Shown: one piece after another, positions 448 through 49,673 of the stretch
How the letters are laid out: the number at the start of each line of letters is the position of its first letter
Numbering within the stretch: the first letter of the stretch is position 1
Assembly (NCBI RefSeq): GCF_041886205.1
Contig: NZ_CP169029.1
Direction: 5' to 3' (one strand)
DNA length: 64,000 nucleotides
Source: Escherichia coli
Lineage (GTDB): Bacteria; Pseudomonadota; Gammaproteobacteria; Enterobacterales; Enterobacteriaceae
Made by a program: the position numbers and the translations under genes
Notes under the pieces: generated by a model
What the model was told of the DNA's origin: nothing
Seen by the model: only the letters and a program-made list of their open reading frames with translations
Databases searched by the model: none

Positions 448-1599
448 TTAATCAGCTTGCTTACGCAGGAATGCTGGGATATCCAGATAATCCGGCTCTT
501 TCGCAGTTTGCGGCGCATTGTCATTCACGACTTTAGCAACCGGCTTCTGCTCCTGGGTCAGCGGAGCCATCCCGTGCTGCTGGTAGCGATCCATCACTGG
601 CTGCTGAACCTGCTTATTGGTCACCAGAGTGATTTCAGGACGTTTGTCCATGCCGATACCTGTCGCAACAACGGTTACGCGCAGCTCGTCATTCATATCC
701 GGGTCAAGAGAAGTACCGATAACCACAGTCGCGTTGTCGGAAGCAAATGCACGGATGGTGTTACCTACCGTTTCGAACTCATCCAGACGCAGGTCGAAGC
801 CCGCCGTGATGTTAACCAGCACGCCGCGCGCGCCAGACAGGTCGATATCTTCCAGCAGCGGAGAAGAGATAGCCATTTCAGCAGCTTCTTCCGCACGGTC
901 TTCACCGCTCGCCACGCCAGAACCCATCATTGCGTAGCCCATTTCAGACATTACGGTGCGTACGTCTGCAAAGTCCACGTTCATCAAACCCGGACGAGTA
1001 ATCAGTTCGGCGATACCTTGCACAGCGCCTTTGAGTACATCGTTCGCTGCGCCAAACGCATCCAGCAGGGAGATACCGCGGCCCAGAACTTTCAGCAGTT
1101 TGTCGTTCGGGATAGTGATCAGAGAGTCCACATGCTTGGACAGTTCAGTGATCCCCTGCTCCGCGAATGCCATACGCTTCTTGCCTTCAAAGTTGAAGGG
1201 CTTAGTGACGACAGCAACGGTCAGGATACCCAAATCTTTTGCCACTTCAGCGACGACTGGTGCTGCACCTGTACCGGTACCACCACCCATACCCGCAGCA
1301 ATAAAGACCATGTCTGCACCTTCCAGCGCCGCACGCAGTGCATCGCGATCCTCATCAGCCGCATTGCGGCCAACTTCTGGATTAGCGCCAGCTCCCAGTC
1401 CTTTGGTGATACCGCTACCGATTTGAATCGTCTGTCCAACCGCTGTTTTACGCAGCGCTTGTGCATCGGTATTTACCGCGAAGAATTCAACACCTTCAAT
1501 GCGCTCGCGCACCATGTGTTCAACAGCATTACCGCCGCCGCCGCCGACGCCGATGACTTTAATCACCGCGTCATTGGTAAGTTCCATTGGTTCAAACAT
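448..1599 (-). CDS. ftsZ: Cell division GTPase FtsZ (383 aa)
   Basis: ORF track 383 aa; tubulin-like GGGTGTG signature; full-length match to E. coli FtsZ from memory. Confidence 0.97.
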
Positions 1600-1659
1600 A
1601 GTTTCTCTCCGATTTGTGCCTGTCGCCTGAGACCGTAATCATTGTCGGCCTCATAAAAA

Positions 1660-2922
1660 TTAAAACTCTTTTCGCAGCCAACTATTGAGTCGCTTGATCC
1701 ACGAGCCAACTGATGCTGTAACACGTTTTTCTACTTCAGCTTCACCGTTAAGATGTGACTCTTTCCCGTAATGAAGCAATCCCACCGCCGTCGAATAATA
1801 CGGCTCCTGAGCATAATCCGTTAAACCGGTAATGTTCAGTGGCGCGCCGATACGCACCTGCGTATGAAACACGCGCTGAGCACAGGCTGCAAGACCTTCA
1901 ATCTGCGCTGCGCCACCGGTTAATACAATGCCTGCCGCCAGGTGATGTTTAACCCCTTGTTGGCGAAGCTTTTCCTGCAACTGCAATATCTCTTCGTTGA
2001 CCAGGTTGAGCAGCTCGGTATAGCGCGGCTCGATCACCTCTGCCAGGGTCTGACGTTGCAGACTCCGCGGCGGACGACCGCCTACGCTCGGCACTTCCAC
2101 GCTCTCATCTTTTCCAACGATGGAACCCAGCGCACAACCGTGGCGAACTTTAATCGCTTCGGCGTCGCTTGGCGGCGTGCCAAAGGCGTAAGCGATATCA
2201 CTGGTCACGACATTGCCAGCATAAGGAATTACCTTAGTGTGGCGCAATGCCCCACCGGTATAAACGGCGATATCCATTGTACCACCACCGATATCGACGA
2301 CGCAGACACCCAGTTCACGTTCATCTTCCGTCAATACCGAATAACTTGATGCCAGACCGGCAAATATCAGTTGGTCAACTTTCAGCCCACAACGTTCAAC
2401 CGCTTTGACGATGTTTTTCGCCATATCGTTGTGGCATGTGATCAGGTGCACTTTTGCCTGCATCCGCACGCCCGAAAGTCCTACCGGATTCTTGATCCCT
2501 TCCTGATAGTCAATCGCATACTCTTGCGGGATCACATGCAGCACACGATGCTCATCGCGCACACGCACCGATTTCGCGGTATGGACGACGTTTTCCACAT
2601 CTTCTTGCGTTACTTCTTCTTCAGAAATAGGCACCATACCAATTTCATTCTGGCAGCTGATGTGCTTACCAGAAAGCGCCAGATATACCGAAGAGATCTG
2701 ACAATCTGCCATCAATTCTGCCTGGTCAATGGCGCGTTGTACGCACTTGACCACGGATTCGAGGTCGTTCACCCCGCCTTTATCCATACCACGCGACGGG
2801 CAGCTGCCCACGCCAATGATATTGACCATACCGTCGGGCAGAACTTCCCCTACTAAAGCGGCAACCTTCGCGGTACCAATCTCCAGTCCTACTACCAGTT
2901 TTCTGTCCGTCGCCTTGATCAT
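1660..2922 (-). CDS. ftsA: Cell division protein FtsA (actin-like ATPase, 420 aa)
   Basis: ORF track 420 aa, [20 protein letters not shown]...; conserved dcw order. Confidence 0.96.
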
Positions 2923-3749
2923 TGTTGTTCTGCCTGTGCCTGATTTTGTTGCTGAGTAGATTCCTCTGGCGGCAAGGGCGCCCAGCCTACTGCCGCTCCA
3001 GAGTCATAACGCAAATCAACGTAGCTAATCCGTTTGCCATCGGTTTGCGCCTGCTGCTGTAAAACCGGATAAAGTTCTACAAAGCGAGCCAAACGTTTCA
3101 TCGTATCGCCCCGGCCAAGATTGAGCTTAATATCGTTATTCAGCGTCAACTGCCAGGAACGCCGCGCGGTCATCGCCGCTTCCTTCAGAGTAAATCTGTC
3201 CTTTGCCAGCATCTGCCCCATTTCGCGATAGCCCTGCAACACTTCATTGGCGCTGCCTTCCGGGCCATACAGCATTGGAAGCACCTGCTTGCTGGTGCGA
3301 TCTGGCGGCACGCTAAAGGTGTTTCCTTCCGCGTCTACCATATGTTGATCATTCCACCGCGCAATCGGCACATATTCAACCAGATGAATCTTCAATTCAT
3401 CTGGCCACTGCTTTCTGACGCTCACCTGCTTAATCCACGGCAGGCGTTGTTCTATTTGCGTCTGGATGATGTTGACATCCTGGGTCATAAAGGTACCCGG
3501 CTCACCCAATGCCAGGATCGATTGCCGGATATCGTCATTACGCGTGTAATGGCGTTCACCGGTCAACACCAGCTTTGAGAGCGGCAGGCGTTGCGCATCT
3601 TCCATCCAGCCCAACACGACCCAGCCGCTCACCAACACTGTCGTTAAAACGGTCAGCAGGAAAAGGATCCCCGCCAGACGCGTTCCATTATTGCGGCGAG
3701 AAGAAACCTCTTCTTCGCTGTTTCGCGTGTTCAGAGCAGCCTGCGACAT
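2919..3749 (-). CDS. ftsQ: Cell division protein FtsQ (276 aa)
   Basis: ORF track 276 aa; 4-bp overlap with ftsA start; position in dcw cluster. Confidence 0.95.
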
Positions 3750-3750
3750 A

Positions 3751-6139
<2,389 letters not shown>

Positions 6140-29603: not shown

Positions 29604-31262
29604 ATGCCATCTGCTCGTCTGCAACAACAGTTCATCCGCCTGTGGCAATGCTGCGAGGGTAAATCGCAGGACACAACGCTCAACGAACTGGCAGCGTTAT
29701 TGAGCTGCTCGCGTCGTCATATGCGTACCCTGCTCAACACCATGCAGGATCGCGGCTGGCTGACGTGGGAAGCGGAAGTCGGGCGCGGTAAACGCTCGCG
29801 TCTGACATTCCTCTATACCGGGCTGGCGCTTCAGCAACAGCGGGCGGAAGACCTGCTGGAGCAGGATCGTATCGACCAACTAGTGCAGTTGGTTGGCGAC
29901 AAAGCGACTGTGCGGCAAATGCTGGTTTCTCATCTGGGCCGCAGCTTCCGCCAGGGGCGGCACATCCTGCGCGTGCTCTACTATCGTCCGTTGCGTAATC
30001 TGCTACCTGGCAGCGCATTGCGCCGTTCCGAAACCCATATCGCCCGGCAAATCTTCAGTTCGCTAACGCGCATAAATGAGGAAAATGGGGAACTGGAAGC
30101 AGACATCGCCCACCACTGGCAGCAAATATCACCGCTTCACTGGCGTTTCTTTTTGCGTCCAGGAGTCCATTTTCATCATGGTCGTGAACTGGAAATGGAC
30201 GATGTGATCGCCTCTTTAAAACGGATCAATACGCTGCCGCTCTATTCGCATATTGCTGAAATTGTATCGCCGACGCCCTGGACGCTGGATATCCACCTCA
30301 CGCAGCCGGACCGCTGGTTGCCGTTACTGCTGGGACAAGTTCCGGCGATGATCCTGCCGCGCGAATGGGAAACCATCAGTAACTTTGCCAGCCATCCCAT
30401 CGGCACCGGTCCGTATGCAGTGATCCGCAACAGCACCAATCAACTGAAAATTCAGGCATTCGATGACTTCTTCGGTTACCGGGCATTAATCGACGAAGTT
30501 AACGTCTGGGTTCTGCCGGAAATTGCCGACGAGCCAGCCGGAGGTCTGATGCTAAAAGGGCCACAGGGCGAGGAAAAAGAGATTGAAAGCCGCCTGGAGG
30601 AAGGTTGCTACTATTTACTGTTCGACAGCCGCACCCATCGCGGGGCGAATCAGCAAGTCAGGGACTGGGTAAGCTATGTGCTTTCTCCAACTAATCTGGT
30701 CTATTTCGCTGAGGAACAGTACCAGCAACTGTGGTTCCCGGCTTATGGACTGCTCCCCCGTTGGCACCATGCCCGCACCATAAAGAGCGAAAAACCGGCT
30801 GGTCTGGAAAGCCTCACCCTGACCTTTTATCAGGATCACAGTGAGCATCGGGTGATTGCCGGGATCATGCAGCAGATTCTGGCAAGTCACCAGGTCACGC
30901 TGGAAATCAAAGAGATCAGCTACGATCAGTGGCATGAAGGAGAGATTGAGAGCGATATCTGGCTTAACAGCGCCAACTTTACGCTACCGCTGGATTTTTC
31001 GCTGTTCGCGCACCTGTGCGAGGTGCCGCTGCTCCAACACTGTATTCCGATCGACTGGCAAGCCGACGCCGCCCGCTGGCGCAATGGCGAAATGAATCTG
31101 GCGAACTGGTGCCAGCAACTGGTCGCCTGCAAAGCAATGGTGCCGCTCATCCATCACTGGCTGATCATTCAGGGGCAACGCAGTATGCGCGGCCTGCGTA
31201 TGAATACCCTCGGCTGGTTCGATTTTAAATCAGCGTGGTTTGCGCCGCCGGATCCTGAGTAG
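29604..31262 (+). CDS. sgrR: Transcriptional regulator SgrR (551 aa)
   Basis: Known start [44 protein letters not shown]... (7 codons into the track ORF); N-terminal HTH plus solute-binding-like domain. Confidence 0.94.
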
Positions 31263-31725
31263 CTGGCGCCTTTTTGCGGTCATGAGCGCGTTTTTTATAT
31301 TTTCTCTGTTTTATGCATCGTCTGATTAGCGTCGCAAATAAGATTATCTCGAATCGTGTGCGATTCATTGTCTGAAAAATAACGACTCCGCACTCTCTGA
31401 AAACAAGACAGAGTCTGGATTCGACTCCAGACACCAACTCAATTTTCTTTTGCAAGAATAAAAATACACGCTCATAATTTCAGTAACACGCTGGTGTTTC
31501 AGGCTAATCAGACGAGATTTTATCTTGCGTGGGTGTGGGGTGTTGATGTTAAGTGACAGGCATATGAAAATTAGCGCACCGGGTAGGATTCAGTATTTCT
31601 GCGCAATATTGTTTTATCTAAAAAAAATAAGTCAGTGTGTTTTTTACCTTATTTTATATATAGTGGTCAGTACCAACTTAAAAAAGAAAGGGCGTTCCTG
31701 CCCCTTCCCTATTTCTTATTCTGGC

Positions 31726-45163: not shown

Positions 45164-48070
45164 ATGCCTTTTACACTTGGTCAACGCTGGATCAGCGATA
45201 CAGAAAGCGAATTGGGACTTGGAACCGTTGTCGCGGTGGATGCGCGAACTGTCACTTTACTTTTCCCATCTACTGGTGAAAACCGTCTGTACGCACGCAG
45301 TGATTCCCCCGTGACCCGCGTGATGTTCAACCCTGGTGATACCATTACCAGCCATGACGGCTGGCAGATGCAAGTCGAAGAAGTAAAAGAAGAAAATGGC
45401 TTGCTGACCTATATCGGTACTCGCCTGGATACTGAAGAGTCCGGCGTAGCCCTGCGTGAAGTTTTCCTTGATAGCAAACTGGTGTTCAGCAAACCGCAGG
45501 ACCGCCTGTTTGCCGGGCAGATTGACCGTATGGACCGCTTTGCGCTGCGTTATCGCGCGCGTAAGTATTCCAGCGAACAGTTCCGTATGCCGTACAGCGG
45601 CCTGCGCGGTCAGCGTACCAGCCTGATCCCGCACCAGCTGAACATCGCTCATGATGTTGGCCGCCGCCACGCGCCGCGCGTCCTGCTGGCTGACGAAGTG
45701 GGTTTAGGGAAAACCATTGAAGCCGGGATGATCCTGCATCAGCAACTGCTCTCTGGCGCTGCTGAACGTGTGCTGATTATCGTCCCGGAAACCTTACAAC
45801 ATCAGTGGCTGGTAGAAATGCTGCGCCGTTTCAACCTGCGTTTTGCGCTGTTTGATGATGAGCGTTATGCCGAAGCTCAGCACGATGCTTACAACCCGTT
45901 CGACACCGAACAACTGGTGATTTGCTCGCTGGATTTTGCCCGTCGTAGCAAACAGCGTCTGGAACACCTCTGTGAAGCCGAGTGGGACCTGCTGGTTGTC
46001 GATGAAGCGCATCACCTGGTGTGGAGCGAAGATGCGCCGAGCCGTGAATATCAGGCCATTGAACAACTGGCTGAGCACGTGCCGGGCGTTCTGCTGCTGA
46101 CCGCAACCCCGGAACAGCTGGGGATGGAAAGCCACTTCGCCCGTCTGCGTCTGCTGGACCCGAACCGTTTCCACGATTTTGCGCAATTCGTTGAAGAGCA
46201 GAAAAATTATCGTCCGGTTGCGGACGCCGTTGCCATGCTGCTGGCAGGTAACAAACTGAGCAATGACGAACTGAACATGCTTGGCGAGATGATCGGCGAG
46301 CAGGATATCGAGCCGCTGTTGCAAGCAGCAAACAGCGACAGGGAAGATGCCCAGAGCGCCCGTCAGGAACTGGTTTCGATGCTGATGGATCGCCACGGCA
46401 CCAGCCGCGTGCTGTTCCGTAACACCCGTAACGGTGTGAAAGGCTTCCCGAAACGCGAGCTGCACACCATTAAGCTGCCGCTGCCGACGCAGTATCAGAC
46501 GGCTATTAAAGTCTCCGGCATTATGGGCGCACGTAAAAGTGCGGAAGACCGCGCCCGCGATATGCTCTACCCGGAGCGTATTTATCAGGAATTTGAAGGT
46601 GATAACGCCACCTGGTGGAACTTCGATCCGCGCGTTGAGTGGCTGATGGGCTACCTGACCAGCCATCGCTCTCAGAAAGTGCTGGTGATCTGCGCTAAAG
46701 CTGCCACTGCGCTGCAACTGGAGCAAGTACTGCGCGAACGTGAAGGTATTCGCGCTGCGGTGTTCCACGAAGGTATGTCGATTATCGAACGTGACCGCGC
46801 TGCCGCCTGGTTTGCTGAAGAAGACACCGGCGCACAGGTACTGCTGTGCTCGGAAATCGGTTCTGAAGGACGTAACTTCCAGTTCGCCAGCCACATGGTG
46901 ATGTTTGACCTGCCATTCAACCCGGATCTGCTGGAGCAGCGTATTGGTCGTCTGGATCGTATCGGTCAGGCGCACGATATTCAGATCCATGTGCCTTATC
47001 TGGAAAAAACCGCTCAGTCGGTGCTGGTGCGCTGGTATCACGAAGGTCTGGATGCATTCGAGCACACCTGCCCGACCGGACGCACTATTTACGATAGCGT
47101 ATACAACGATCTGATTAACTATCTGGCTTCACCGGATCAAACCGAAGGCTTTGACGATCTGATCAAAAACTGCCGCGAGCAACATGAAGCGCTGAAAGCA
47201 CAGCTGGAACAGGGTCGTGACCGCCTGCTGGAAATCCACTCCAACGGTGGCGAAAAAGCCCAGGCACTGGCAGAAAGCATTGAAGAGCAGGATGACGATA
47301 CCAACCTGATCGCCTTCGCCATGAACCTGTTCGATATTATCGGTATCAATCAGGACGATCGCGGCGACAACATGATCGTGCTGACGCCGTCCGATCATAT
47401 GCTGGTGCCGGACTTCCCTGGCCTGTCGGAAGATGGCATCACCATCACCTTTGATCGTGAAGTGGCGCTGGCGCGTGAAGATGCACAGTTTATTACCTGG
47501 GAGCATCCGCTGATCCGCAACGGTCTGGATCTGATCCTTTCTGGCGATACCGGTAGCAGCACGATTTCACTGTTAAAAAACAAAGCGTTGCCGGTAGGTA
47601 CGCTGTTGGTGGAACTGATTTATGTGGTTGAAGCCCAGGCTCCGAAGCAGTTGCAGCTCAACCGCTTCCTGCCACCGACGCCGGTACGTATGCTGCTGGA
47701 TAAAAACGGCAACAACCTGGCGGCGCAGGTAGAGTTTGAAACCTTTAACCGCCAGCTTAACGCGGTTAACCGTCACACCGGCAGCAAACTGGTTAACGCC
47801 GTGCAGCAGGATGTTCACGCTATCCTTCAACTGGGTGAAGCGCAGATCGAGAAATCTGCCCGTGCATTGATTGATGCAGCGCGTAACGAAGCCGACGAAA
47901 AACTGTCTGCCGAGCTGTCTCGTCTGGAAGCGCTGCGTGCAGTGAACCCGAACATTCGTGACGACGAACTGACCGCTATTGAGAGCAACCGTCAGCAGGT
48001 AATGGAAAGCCTGGATCAGGCTGGTTGGCGTCTGGATGCCCTGCGTTTGATCGTTGTAACGCATCAGTAA
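45164..48070 (+). CDS. rapA: RNA polymerase-associated Swi2/Snf2 ATPase RapA/HepA (968 aa)
   Basis: ORF track 968 aa; helicase motifs [13 protein letters not shown]. Confidence 0.97.
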
Positions 48071-48081
48071 CGGAGCCGAAA

Positions 48082-48741
48082 ATGGGGATGGAAAACTACA
48101 ATCCACCGCAGGAACCCTGGTTGGTTATCCTGTATCAGGATGACCACATTATGGTGGTCAACAAGCCGAGCGGTTTGTTGTCTGTGCCGGGTCGTCTGGA
48201 AGAGCACAAAGATAGCGTGATGACGCGCATTCAGCGTGATTATCCGCAGGCAGAATCGGTGCATCGTCTGGATATGGCTACCAGCGGCGTGATTGTAGTG
48301 GCGCTGACCAAAGCCGCGGAGCGGGAGTTAAAACGCCAGTTCCGCGAGCGCGAGCCGAAAAAGCAGTATGTGGCCCGCGTCTGGGGGCATCCATCCCCCG
48401 CAGAAGGTCTGGTGGATCTGCCGCTGATTTGCGACTGGCCAAACCGCCCGAAACAGAAAGTCTGTTACGAAACGGGTAAACCTGCGCAGACGGAATATGA
48501 AGTGGTGGAGTATGCGGCGGATAACACGGCAAGAGTGGTGTTAAAACCGATTACCGGGCGTTCGCATCAATTGCGTGTGCATATGCTGGCGCTGGGTCAT
48601 CCGATTCTCGGCGATCGTTTTTATGCATCACCAGAAGCGAGAGCGATGGCACCACGTTTGTTGCTACATGCAGAGATGTTGACGATTACCCATCCGGCGT
48701 ATGGCAATAGTATGACGTTTAAAGCGCCAGCGGATTTTTAA
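48082..48741 (+). CDS. rluA: Pseudouridine synthase RluA (23S U746 / tRNA U32; 219 aa)
   Basis: Known start MGMENYNPPQEPWLVILYQDDHIMVVNKPSGLLSV... (19 codons into the track ORF); catalytic HRLD motif. Confidence 0.94.
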   Translation: MGMENYNPPQEPWLVILYQDDHIMVVNKPSGLLSVPGRLEEHKDSVMTRIQRDYPQAESVHRLDMATSGVIVVALTKAAERELKRQFREREPKKQYVARVWGHPSPAEGLVDLPLICDWPNRPKQKVCYETGKPAQTEYEVVEYAADNTARVVLKPITGRSHQLRVHMLALGHPILGDRFYASPEARAMAPRLLLHAEMLTITHPAYGNSMTFKAPADF

Positions 48742-48744
48742 TCG

Positions 48745-48852
48745 TCACGCTGGCGCAGTTCGGTAGGCGGATAAGGCGTTCACGCCGCATCCGGCAATTG
48801 TGCGCCGATTGCCTGATGCGACGCGGGCCGCGTCTTATCAGGCCTACAGTTT
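48745..48852. repeat. REP elements between rluA and djlA
   Basis: cggtaggcggataaggcgttcacgccgcatccggca ... gcctgatgcgacgcgggccgcgtcttatcaggcctac. Confidence 0.85.
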
Positions 48853-48857
48853 AAAAC

Positions 48858-49673
48858 TTATTTAAACCCTTTCTGCTGCTTTATCAGCTCATATGCCTGC
48901 TGAATTTCCTGCGCTTTCTGCTTCGCCATCTCCATCATCTCAGGCGGCAAACCTTTCGCCACCAGCTTATCGGGATGGTGTTCACTCATCAGCTTACGGT
49001 AGGCACGTTTGATGGTGGTCGCATCATCCGTCGGCTTCACGCCCAGCACATTACAGGCATCTTCCAGCGTCGGGCCACGCTGCGCTTGCTGCCAGTTACC
49101 ACCGCCAGATTGCTGCTGATAACCGCCGCCAAACTGTGCACCGCCCTGCATCATGCGCAAAAACTGGTCAAACTGGGCGCGGGAGATCCCTAATTCTTCA
49201 GCAATGACATACAGCACCGCCCGTTCATTCGGGTGCAGTGAACCATCAGCAAACGCCGCCTGAATCTGGATCTCCAGAAACATACGAATTAAGTCAAAAC
49301 GACCAAAGCAGACACTGCGAAACTGGCGCATCTTTTCGCGCAGCGGGTAATTGTCTGATTTTCCCACCCGGAACGCGTTTTGCGCCGCAGTACGGGAAGC
49401 GCCATGAAGATTCATTCGGTCCATCAACTGGCTGGCGATATGAATATCAGCCTCCGTGACGCGACCTTTGGATTTGGTTAAATGCCCCATCACTTCAAAA
49501 GTGGTGGCAAAAAACAGCGACTGACGCTCACGCTGGTTGGCGAACCACGCCATTTTACGGCTACGGGCTTTATCAAACATATGGCCAATTAACAGGCCTA
49601 ACACTACGCCCCAAAAGCCGCCGCCCATCAGTAAGGCCACGGCCACGCCAATGATTTTTCCCCAATACTGCAT
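48858..49673 (-). CDS. djlA: DnaJ-like membrane co-chaperone DjlA (271 aa)
   Basis: Known start [33 protein letters not shown]... (15 codons into the track ORF); C-terminal J domain with HPD. Confidence 0.94.

Follow-up and report, generated by a model that had tools for sequence, protein, structure and literature searches.

How should the absence of yabP and yabQ between rluA and djlA in an Escherichia coli genome be read: as the loss of a locus, or as the sequence that stood there before the locus arrived? The question is raised by a 64,000-nucleotide stretch of E. coli chromosome (the window), for which the original prediction had rluA passing from its stop codon through 116 bp of REP sequence directly to the stop codon of djlA, without yabP or yabQ, at coordinates that proved exact (48742-48857). 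The comparison with K-12 made there was checked in MG1655, where the spacer measures 1,507 bp and does contain yabP (b0056) and yabQ (b0057). The further suggestion that only REP repeats remain from a vanished locus is the part that we dispute. We propose instead, with a probability of roughly 85%, that the spacer in the window is the ancestral Y/Z2 REP region, presumably serving as a bidirectional 3'-end element, that the island carrying espY1, the source of yabP and yabQ, is the derived state, and that the window is island-free.

The gene order rapA-rluA-djlA-lptD in the window is that of K-12 reversed (Table 1), and the names rluA and djlA are also those given in the RefSeq annotation of a genome that is 100% identical over positions 48300-49300. 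Between the two convergent genes the ORF list of the window has no reading frame of note. The sequence there consists of a Y unit, which begins 21 nt from the rluA stop codon and lacks one C compared both to the consensus and to the outgroup sequences described below, and a Z2 unit, which has one extra loop base and one substitution compared to the consensus. The two units stand head to head (Y reversed, Z2 forward) across a 14-nt linker, ATTGTGCGCCGATT, and the tail of the Z2 unit, 10 nt from the djlA stop codon, includes the IS621 target ATCAGGCCTAC.

Table 1. Positions of the features discussed, in window coordinates
Feature	Position	Strand	Details
Low-GC island at sgrR-thiB	31267-32783		1,517 bp; GC 0.42 vs 0.53 for the window; delimited by comparison with an empty-site genome
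EspY2-type gene, long form	31726-32577	-	intact, 283 aa; WEX5F domain and C-terminal pentapeptide-repeat beta-helix
Extra in-frame 15-bp unit	31914-31928	-	one more SDIDM than wlxctx60; placement within the repeat tract arbitrary
rapA	45164-48070	+	upstream of rluA
rluA, pseudouridine synthase	48082-48741	+	3' end toward the spacer; stop TAA 48739-48741; from the ORF list
rluA-djlA spacer	48742-48857		116 bp; one Y/Z2 REP pair (BIME) with 21-nt and 10-nt flanks
REP unit, Y type	48763-48796	-	GTAGGCGGATAAGGCGTTCACGCCGCATCCGGCA on the + strand; error-tolerant match to the Y consensus
naRNA4 match (Rfam RF02564, Y/Z2 REP-pair unit of REP325)	48765-48844	+	75.8 bits vs gathering score 59.5
REP unit, Z2 type	48811-48847	+	GCCTGATGCGACGCGGGCCGCGTCTTATCAGGCCTAC; error-tolerant match to the Z2 consensus
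djlA, DnaJ-like co-chaperone	48858-49673	-	convergent with rluA; stop TAA 48858-48860 (TGA in K-12)
lptD	49928 onward	+	beyond djlA

Both units are imperfect palindromes of about 35 nt that follow the Y or Z2 consensus and end in GTAG/CTAC. They are extragenic, lying between two stop codons, they alternate in orientation across a short linker, and they have many dispersed relatives: when a 1-kb query that includes the spacer is searched against E. coli genomes, its REP part has matches at 19 places per genome (median). Shuffled 100 times, the window gave 0 matches to a degenerate REP pattern of fixed length. That pattern overlooked the local Z2 unit, whose loop has one base more, and the Y and Z2 units were defined by an error-tolerant search. 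The spacer matches the naRNA4 model over its full length (model positions 1-77 of 77) and folds as a long composite hairpin on either strand (-52.7 kcal/mol on the + strand, z=-3.2; -50.7 kcal/mol on the - strand, z=-3.4). We take the pair to be of BIME-2 type in the nomenclature of Gilson and Bachellier. Other REP clusters lie elsewhere in the window: at 36206-36296 there is a Y/Z2 pair, and at 41617-41822 a tandem of three units containing Z2, of which one attains the gathering score for naRNA4 (60.2 bits). Positions 1591-1680 (- strand) match another Rfam family, PssrA ('Plasmid-encoded Shigella sRNA A'; 104.9 bits vs 69), in what is apparently chromosomal sequence.

The K-12 genes themselves had been described in the original prediction as a decayed pentapeptide-repeat or EspY-type gene, and this description is borne out by O157:H7, which has at the same site an intact 255-aa gene annotated 'T3SS effector EspY1', adjoining a frameshifted fragment of an IS4/Tn5-family transposase (as annotated). 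Alignment of K-12 with O157 reveals 14-bp indels in K-12 within the 15-bp tandem repeats that code for the pentapeptide tract, and because of these indels the espY1 frame is split in K-12 into yabP and yabQ. The translations of YabP and EspY1 share the WEX5F motif (WETLRHLF), and EspY1 (ECs0061) belongs to the family of WEX5F-domain effectors of Tobe et al. 2006, as summarised in PMC6313403 and PMC3256949. K-12 YabP scores 13.4 bits against the PF00805 cut-off of 20.2, because it is truncated ahead of the repeats. Homology and alignment together identify yabP/yabQ as espY1, a T3SS effector gene, in frameshifted form.

The GC content of this island is 0.44, compared to 0.53 for the window. K-12 and O157 are 94.0% identical across it and 99.1–99.9% identical in djlA, rluA, lptD and rapA, and other E. 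coli strains have island alleles down to about 92–93% identity to K-12. Since it diverges far more than its flanks and is found in distant lineages, the island is, to judge from these identities, old within E. coli.

The 58 bp of the K-12 island that lie nearest djlA (3681-3738 of the fetched locus) recur near yjhR with ~91% identity. K-12 has both copies, and about 550 island-free genomes have the one beside yjhR (in strain 190, at 1501-1558 of the fetched locus). These ~550 additional genomes were considered as possible carriers of an intermediate allele and rejected, as the match lies near yjhR and not between djlA and rluA. The 58-bp stretch could represent one end of some old mobile element.

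If yabP and yabQ had been deleted in place, leaving the REP repeats behind, the island should contain the repeats. We found no REP sequence in the island alleles of K-12, O157 and strain S1-CHI-01-A, and the REPs are therefore not a remnant of a decayed island. The two alleles have nothing in common between the stop codons, and the djlA stop codon itself differs between K-12 and the window (Table 1). The one observation in favour of such a deletion is that K-12 has more DNA between djlA and rluA. The djlA neighbourhood was fetched from 80 species representatives (E. fergusonii and other close outgroups not being among them), in 67 of which rluA adjoins djlA within the fetched flank. The spacer is about 30–480 bp long in 66 of these 67 species and ~2 kb in the other, a Pluralibacter MAG, and tblastn detected no EspY homologue at the djlA locus of any of the 80 representatives. 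The Y/Z2 spacer of the window is present, alignable base for base, in E. whittamii (116 bp) and Escherichia sp. MOD1-EC7003 (117 bp), and also in E. albertii (169 bp), which has additional REP copies. The spacers of Citrobacter and Salmonella are short, with other REP arrangements, and that of Enterobacter is a short plain hairpin; none of these has an EspY gene. As the Y/Z2 pair is found in outgroup Escherichia species, the REPs are the ancestral occupant of the site and the island is derived. Deletion in place can accordingly be given very little credence, the spacer of the window being nearly identical to that of other Escherichia species with no EspY gene. On this comparison the ancestral Escherichia state is the REP spacer, which a low-GC island has replaced over its full length between the two stop codons.

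Of the 5,426 complete E. coli genomes, 3,182 have the short REP allele as a contiguous match and 2,080 (about 38%) have the island allele (at least 80% of the K-12 island), the remainder being mostly disrupted by IS elements or rearranged in other ways; the K-12 state is a derived minority condition and the short allele that of the majority. These counts also bear on whether the island might be present in the strain but have been dropped from the assembly at a repeat. REPs are repeats and are able to break assemblies; against this, the identical contiguous arrangement recurs in the 3,182 complete genomes, and the matches to the window include unbroken alignments with an identity of 100% across 1 kb and of 99.9% across 18.2 kb, so that we attach practically no weight to an artefact of assembly.

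In strain 210205630 the spacer is interrupted by IS621 (4443-5837 of the fetched rluA-djlA locus), which lies within the Z2 unit at ATCAGGCCT^AC, equivalent to window position 48845/48846. The natural target of IS621 lies in REPs (PMC11208160), and the insertion is exactly there. The spacer is thus a live landing site for REP-specific IS elements.

A consensus scan of positions 48500-49100 found no hairpin-plus-T-run terminator and no promoter, and we rejected the spacer as a terminator of that classical kind; any termination would therefore be REP-type or Rho-assisted. REPs have been described as partly Rho-dependent terminators and mRNA stabilisers, those between convergent genes behaving as bidirectional terminators and stabilisers, and ~30% of E. 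coli convergent gene pairs have a REP between them and display elevated expression (bioRxiv 10.64898/2026.03.23.713779). By analogy, the REP pair in the window would give stable hairpins to both transcripts, and would act as a bidirectional 3'-end element of the rapA-rluA and djlA mRNAs, with likely roles in termination or attenuation and in shielding from 3' exonucleases. A role in chromosome compaction was proposed for naRNA4 (PMC4550694) but is disputed by a 2026 preprint, which favours the terminator and stabiliser function (bioRxiv 10.64898/2026.03.23.713779).

REPs located at most 15 nt from a stop codon are reported to be capable of stalling ribosomes at termination, with reduced expression of the gene upstream (Liang et al. 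2015, cited through PMC12306157), and the Z2 unit, starting 10 nt past the djlA stop codon, lies inside this range. The 3' untranslated regions of djlA and rluA are wholly different between the two alleles: in the island allele djlA runs into island-borne sequence, and a hairpin-plus-T-run is brought in beside rluA (read by eye from the K-12 sequence). Expression of djlA may differ between the alleles. One could imagine from this that the two-allele polymorphism, old and species-wide, constitutes a natural switch of DjlA dosage, and thereby of Rcs/capsule signalling, beyond the presence or absence of an effector, but we regard this as improbable.

Taken together, these observations suggest a sequence of events in which a horizontally acquired low-GC island of 1.4–1.5 kb, bearing espY1 and the IS4/Tn5-family transposase remnant, would have displaced the whole REP spacer while supplying terminator-like hairpins of its own. 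In K-12, espY1 would afterwards have decayed to yabP/yabQ via the 14-bp indels in the 15-bp repeat tract. A second island, inserted separately at the stop codon of sgrR, would have supplied the intact EspY2-type gene of the window.

This second locus had also been noticed in the original prediction, which placed an apparently intact member of the same family between sgrR and thiB. The stop codon of sgrR is the point of insertion of the island there, and the TPP riboswitch of thiB (32819-32918) lies downstream of it. Because the insertion starts inside the original stop codon, SgrR ends in ...PPDPE* in the window (31256-31262) compared to ...PPDP* in empty-site genomes (4560-4575 of the fetched locus). 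The junctions form an imperfect direct repeat of 7–9 nt (TAGCTGG / TTGCTGG), a doubtful candidate for a target-site duplication, and the empty site and the junctions overlap by ~9 nt. No transposase remnant was found in the sgrR-thiB island of the window. Mobile-element scars common to the two islands were looked for and rejected, the similarity between them being limited to the coding region of the EspY N-terminal domain (64% identity) and to 58 bp where the gene ends. By sequence comparison both islands are gains, the one at sgrR-thiB probably so, as judged against an E. coli genome in which the site is empty.

The identification of the sgrR-thiB gene as an intact member of the family stands. 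Its product carries the WEX5F motif (WETLRNLF, residues 46-53), shares 37% identity with YabP in the N-terminal domain (E=6e-29), and exceeds the PF00805 cut-off (97.5 bits vs 20.2, E=3e-28) in six stretches across residues ~150-270. Pentapeptide beta-helix proteins in the PDB match it down to E=2.5e-20. It is also 74–79% identical to EspY2 over 64–65% of the query, at the same sgrR-thiB site. The alternative assignment to the PipB2/PipB equivalogs was rejected, the scores lying far under the family cut-offs (41.2 vs 354 bits for NCBIfam NF011743, 40.3 vs 274 for NF011744) and only the repeat region aligning. On the strength of these homologies the 283-aa protein is a member of the EspY family and a predicted T3SS effector homologue. 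A 154-aa ORF lies on the opposite strand of the pentapeptide-repeat gene (31525-31989, +); it probably reflects the repetitive sequence and not a gene.

Homologues of this protein in E. coli are 268, 273 and 278 aa long and that in the window 283 aa, in steps of one 15-bp (5-aa) unit. By this comparison the gene is full length with one repeat more, and the steps look like slippage in an in-frame tandem repeat. The repeat tract lies at 31860-31960; the analogous tract of espY1 is frame-broken in K-12 by the 14-bp indels. Among complete genomes the closest is wlxctx60, with 99.9% identity across 18.2 kb, which differs in this gene by a single 15-bp unit. RefSeq names the protein of the window type only as 'pentapeptide repeat-containing protein', and elsewhere splits the long gene into a 97-aa CDS and a 'pseudogene missing C-terminus' (627-1463 of the fetched locus in wlxctx60, 927-1763 in ET201). 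We rejected the pseudogene call in wlxctx60, where the translation is one uninterrupted 278-aa ORF and the split is an artefact of annotation, which probably arose because the only named model is the 189-aa EspY2 of O157.

Compared to the window, O157 espY2 lacks 211 bp (31816-32026) and a further 336 bp downstream (31347-31682), and the DNA beyond its stop codon retains 71% similarity to the last part of the long gene. The O157 protein therefore looks like a truncated derivative of the longer form, to judge by this residual similarity. The long form occurs in 207 of the 5,426 complete E. coli genomes and the O157-type espY2 in very roughly 800 (estimated from 6 of 40 rows taken at even intervals from the ranking), and the remaining genomes have an empty site. 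Presence or absence of espY genes from strain to strain has been reported before, espY2 having been found in 27% of EAEC isolates (PMC3256949).

The two loci can be combined in every way, and all four combinations of presence and absence occur. Both sites lack an island in AMSCJX02; K-12 has an empty sgrR-thiB site and the yabP/yabQ island; sgrR-thiB and djlA-rluA are both occupied in O157:H7 (O157-type espY2 with espY1) and in RM14516 (long form with espY1); and the window and wlxctx60 combine the long form with the REP spacer. The idea of independent gain and loss at two backbone sites is supported to this extent. Most sampled carriers of the sgrR-thiB island, however, also have espY1: when the 18.2-kb stretch that covers both loci was searched, about 15 of the 60 best-matching genomes had the combination of the window, and the other long-form carriers spanned ~1.3 kb more with espY1 annotated, and the O157-type espY2 carriers in a spread sample have espY1 as well. 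Co-occurrence was judged by alignment span in these sampled genomes. The islands are positively associated and usually found together, and the combination in the window is uncommon.

This association admits another history for the window itself, in which an ancestor carrying the espY1 island recombined with homologous island-free DNA and the ancestral REP allele was restored. The co-occurrence just described speaks for it, as do the short distance between the loci, merely 16 kb, and the 100% identity of the 1-kb djlA-rluA segment to a strain without either island. Import of the sgrR-thiB island into an espY1-free background would however give the same pattern, and we consider secondary loss possible but somewhat doubtful. 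It does not conflict with an ancestral REP allele in the species as a whole; if true, the word 'loss' would hold for the lineage of the window. Because the island is old within E. coli, outgroup parsimony is silent on the history of that particular lineage. The evidence is of an island gain at djlA-rluA, and the lineage of the window either never had espY1 or reverted by allelic replacement. Under either history, our preferred reading of the spacer as the ancestral REP region is the same.

A locus described as absent relative to K-12 may therefore be ancestral sequence and not the product of a deletion, and at djlA-rluA an acquired effector island has taken the place of a REP spacer with the two stop codons as its exact limits, a clean case of its kind. 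The EspY2 named from O157 appears in turn to be a shortened form of a longer pentapeptide-repeat protein, which is kept intact in some commensal-type strains and whose gene is wrongly split by automatic annotation. All of the elements involved are of known kinds (REP/BIME, EspY1/yabPQ, EspY2, IS621 targeting) and amount to a common, ordinary difference between strains; beyond correct bookkeeping of the state of djlA-rluA, their importance is small.

Compared to the REP elements and BIMEs of E. coli in general, the spacer is alike in its opposite ~35-nt palindromes, its extragenic position and its many copies per genome, but consists of a single Y/Z2 pair instead of a multi-copy array, with a Y unit one base short and a Z2 loop one base longer. 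It shares the Y/Z2 hairpin-pair architecture of naRNA4 and REP325; however, REP325 has six units in array within the yjdMN operon and the spacer is one such unit at another locus. IS621, an IS110-family bridge-RNA recombinase, has inserted into this spacer in strain 210205630, whereas the window carries no IS there. Among the effectors, the models of Salmonella PipB2 and PipB match the pentapeptide half of the 283-aa protein weakly (E about 1e-10). EspY2 of O157:H7 (ECs0073, 189 aa) occupies the same sgrR-thiB site as the 283-aa gene but is without the pentapeptide-repeat domain of about 130 aa that the window protein keeps, owing to the 211-bp internal deletion. EspY1, or its remnant yabP/yabQ, is the occupant of exactly this djlA-rluA site in O157 and K-12, for which the window displays the pre-insertion sequence.
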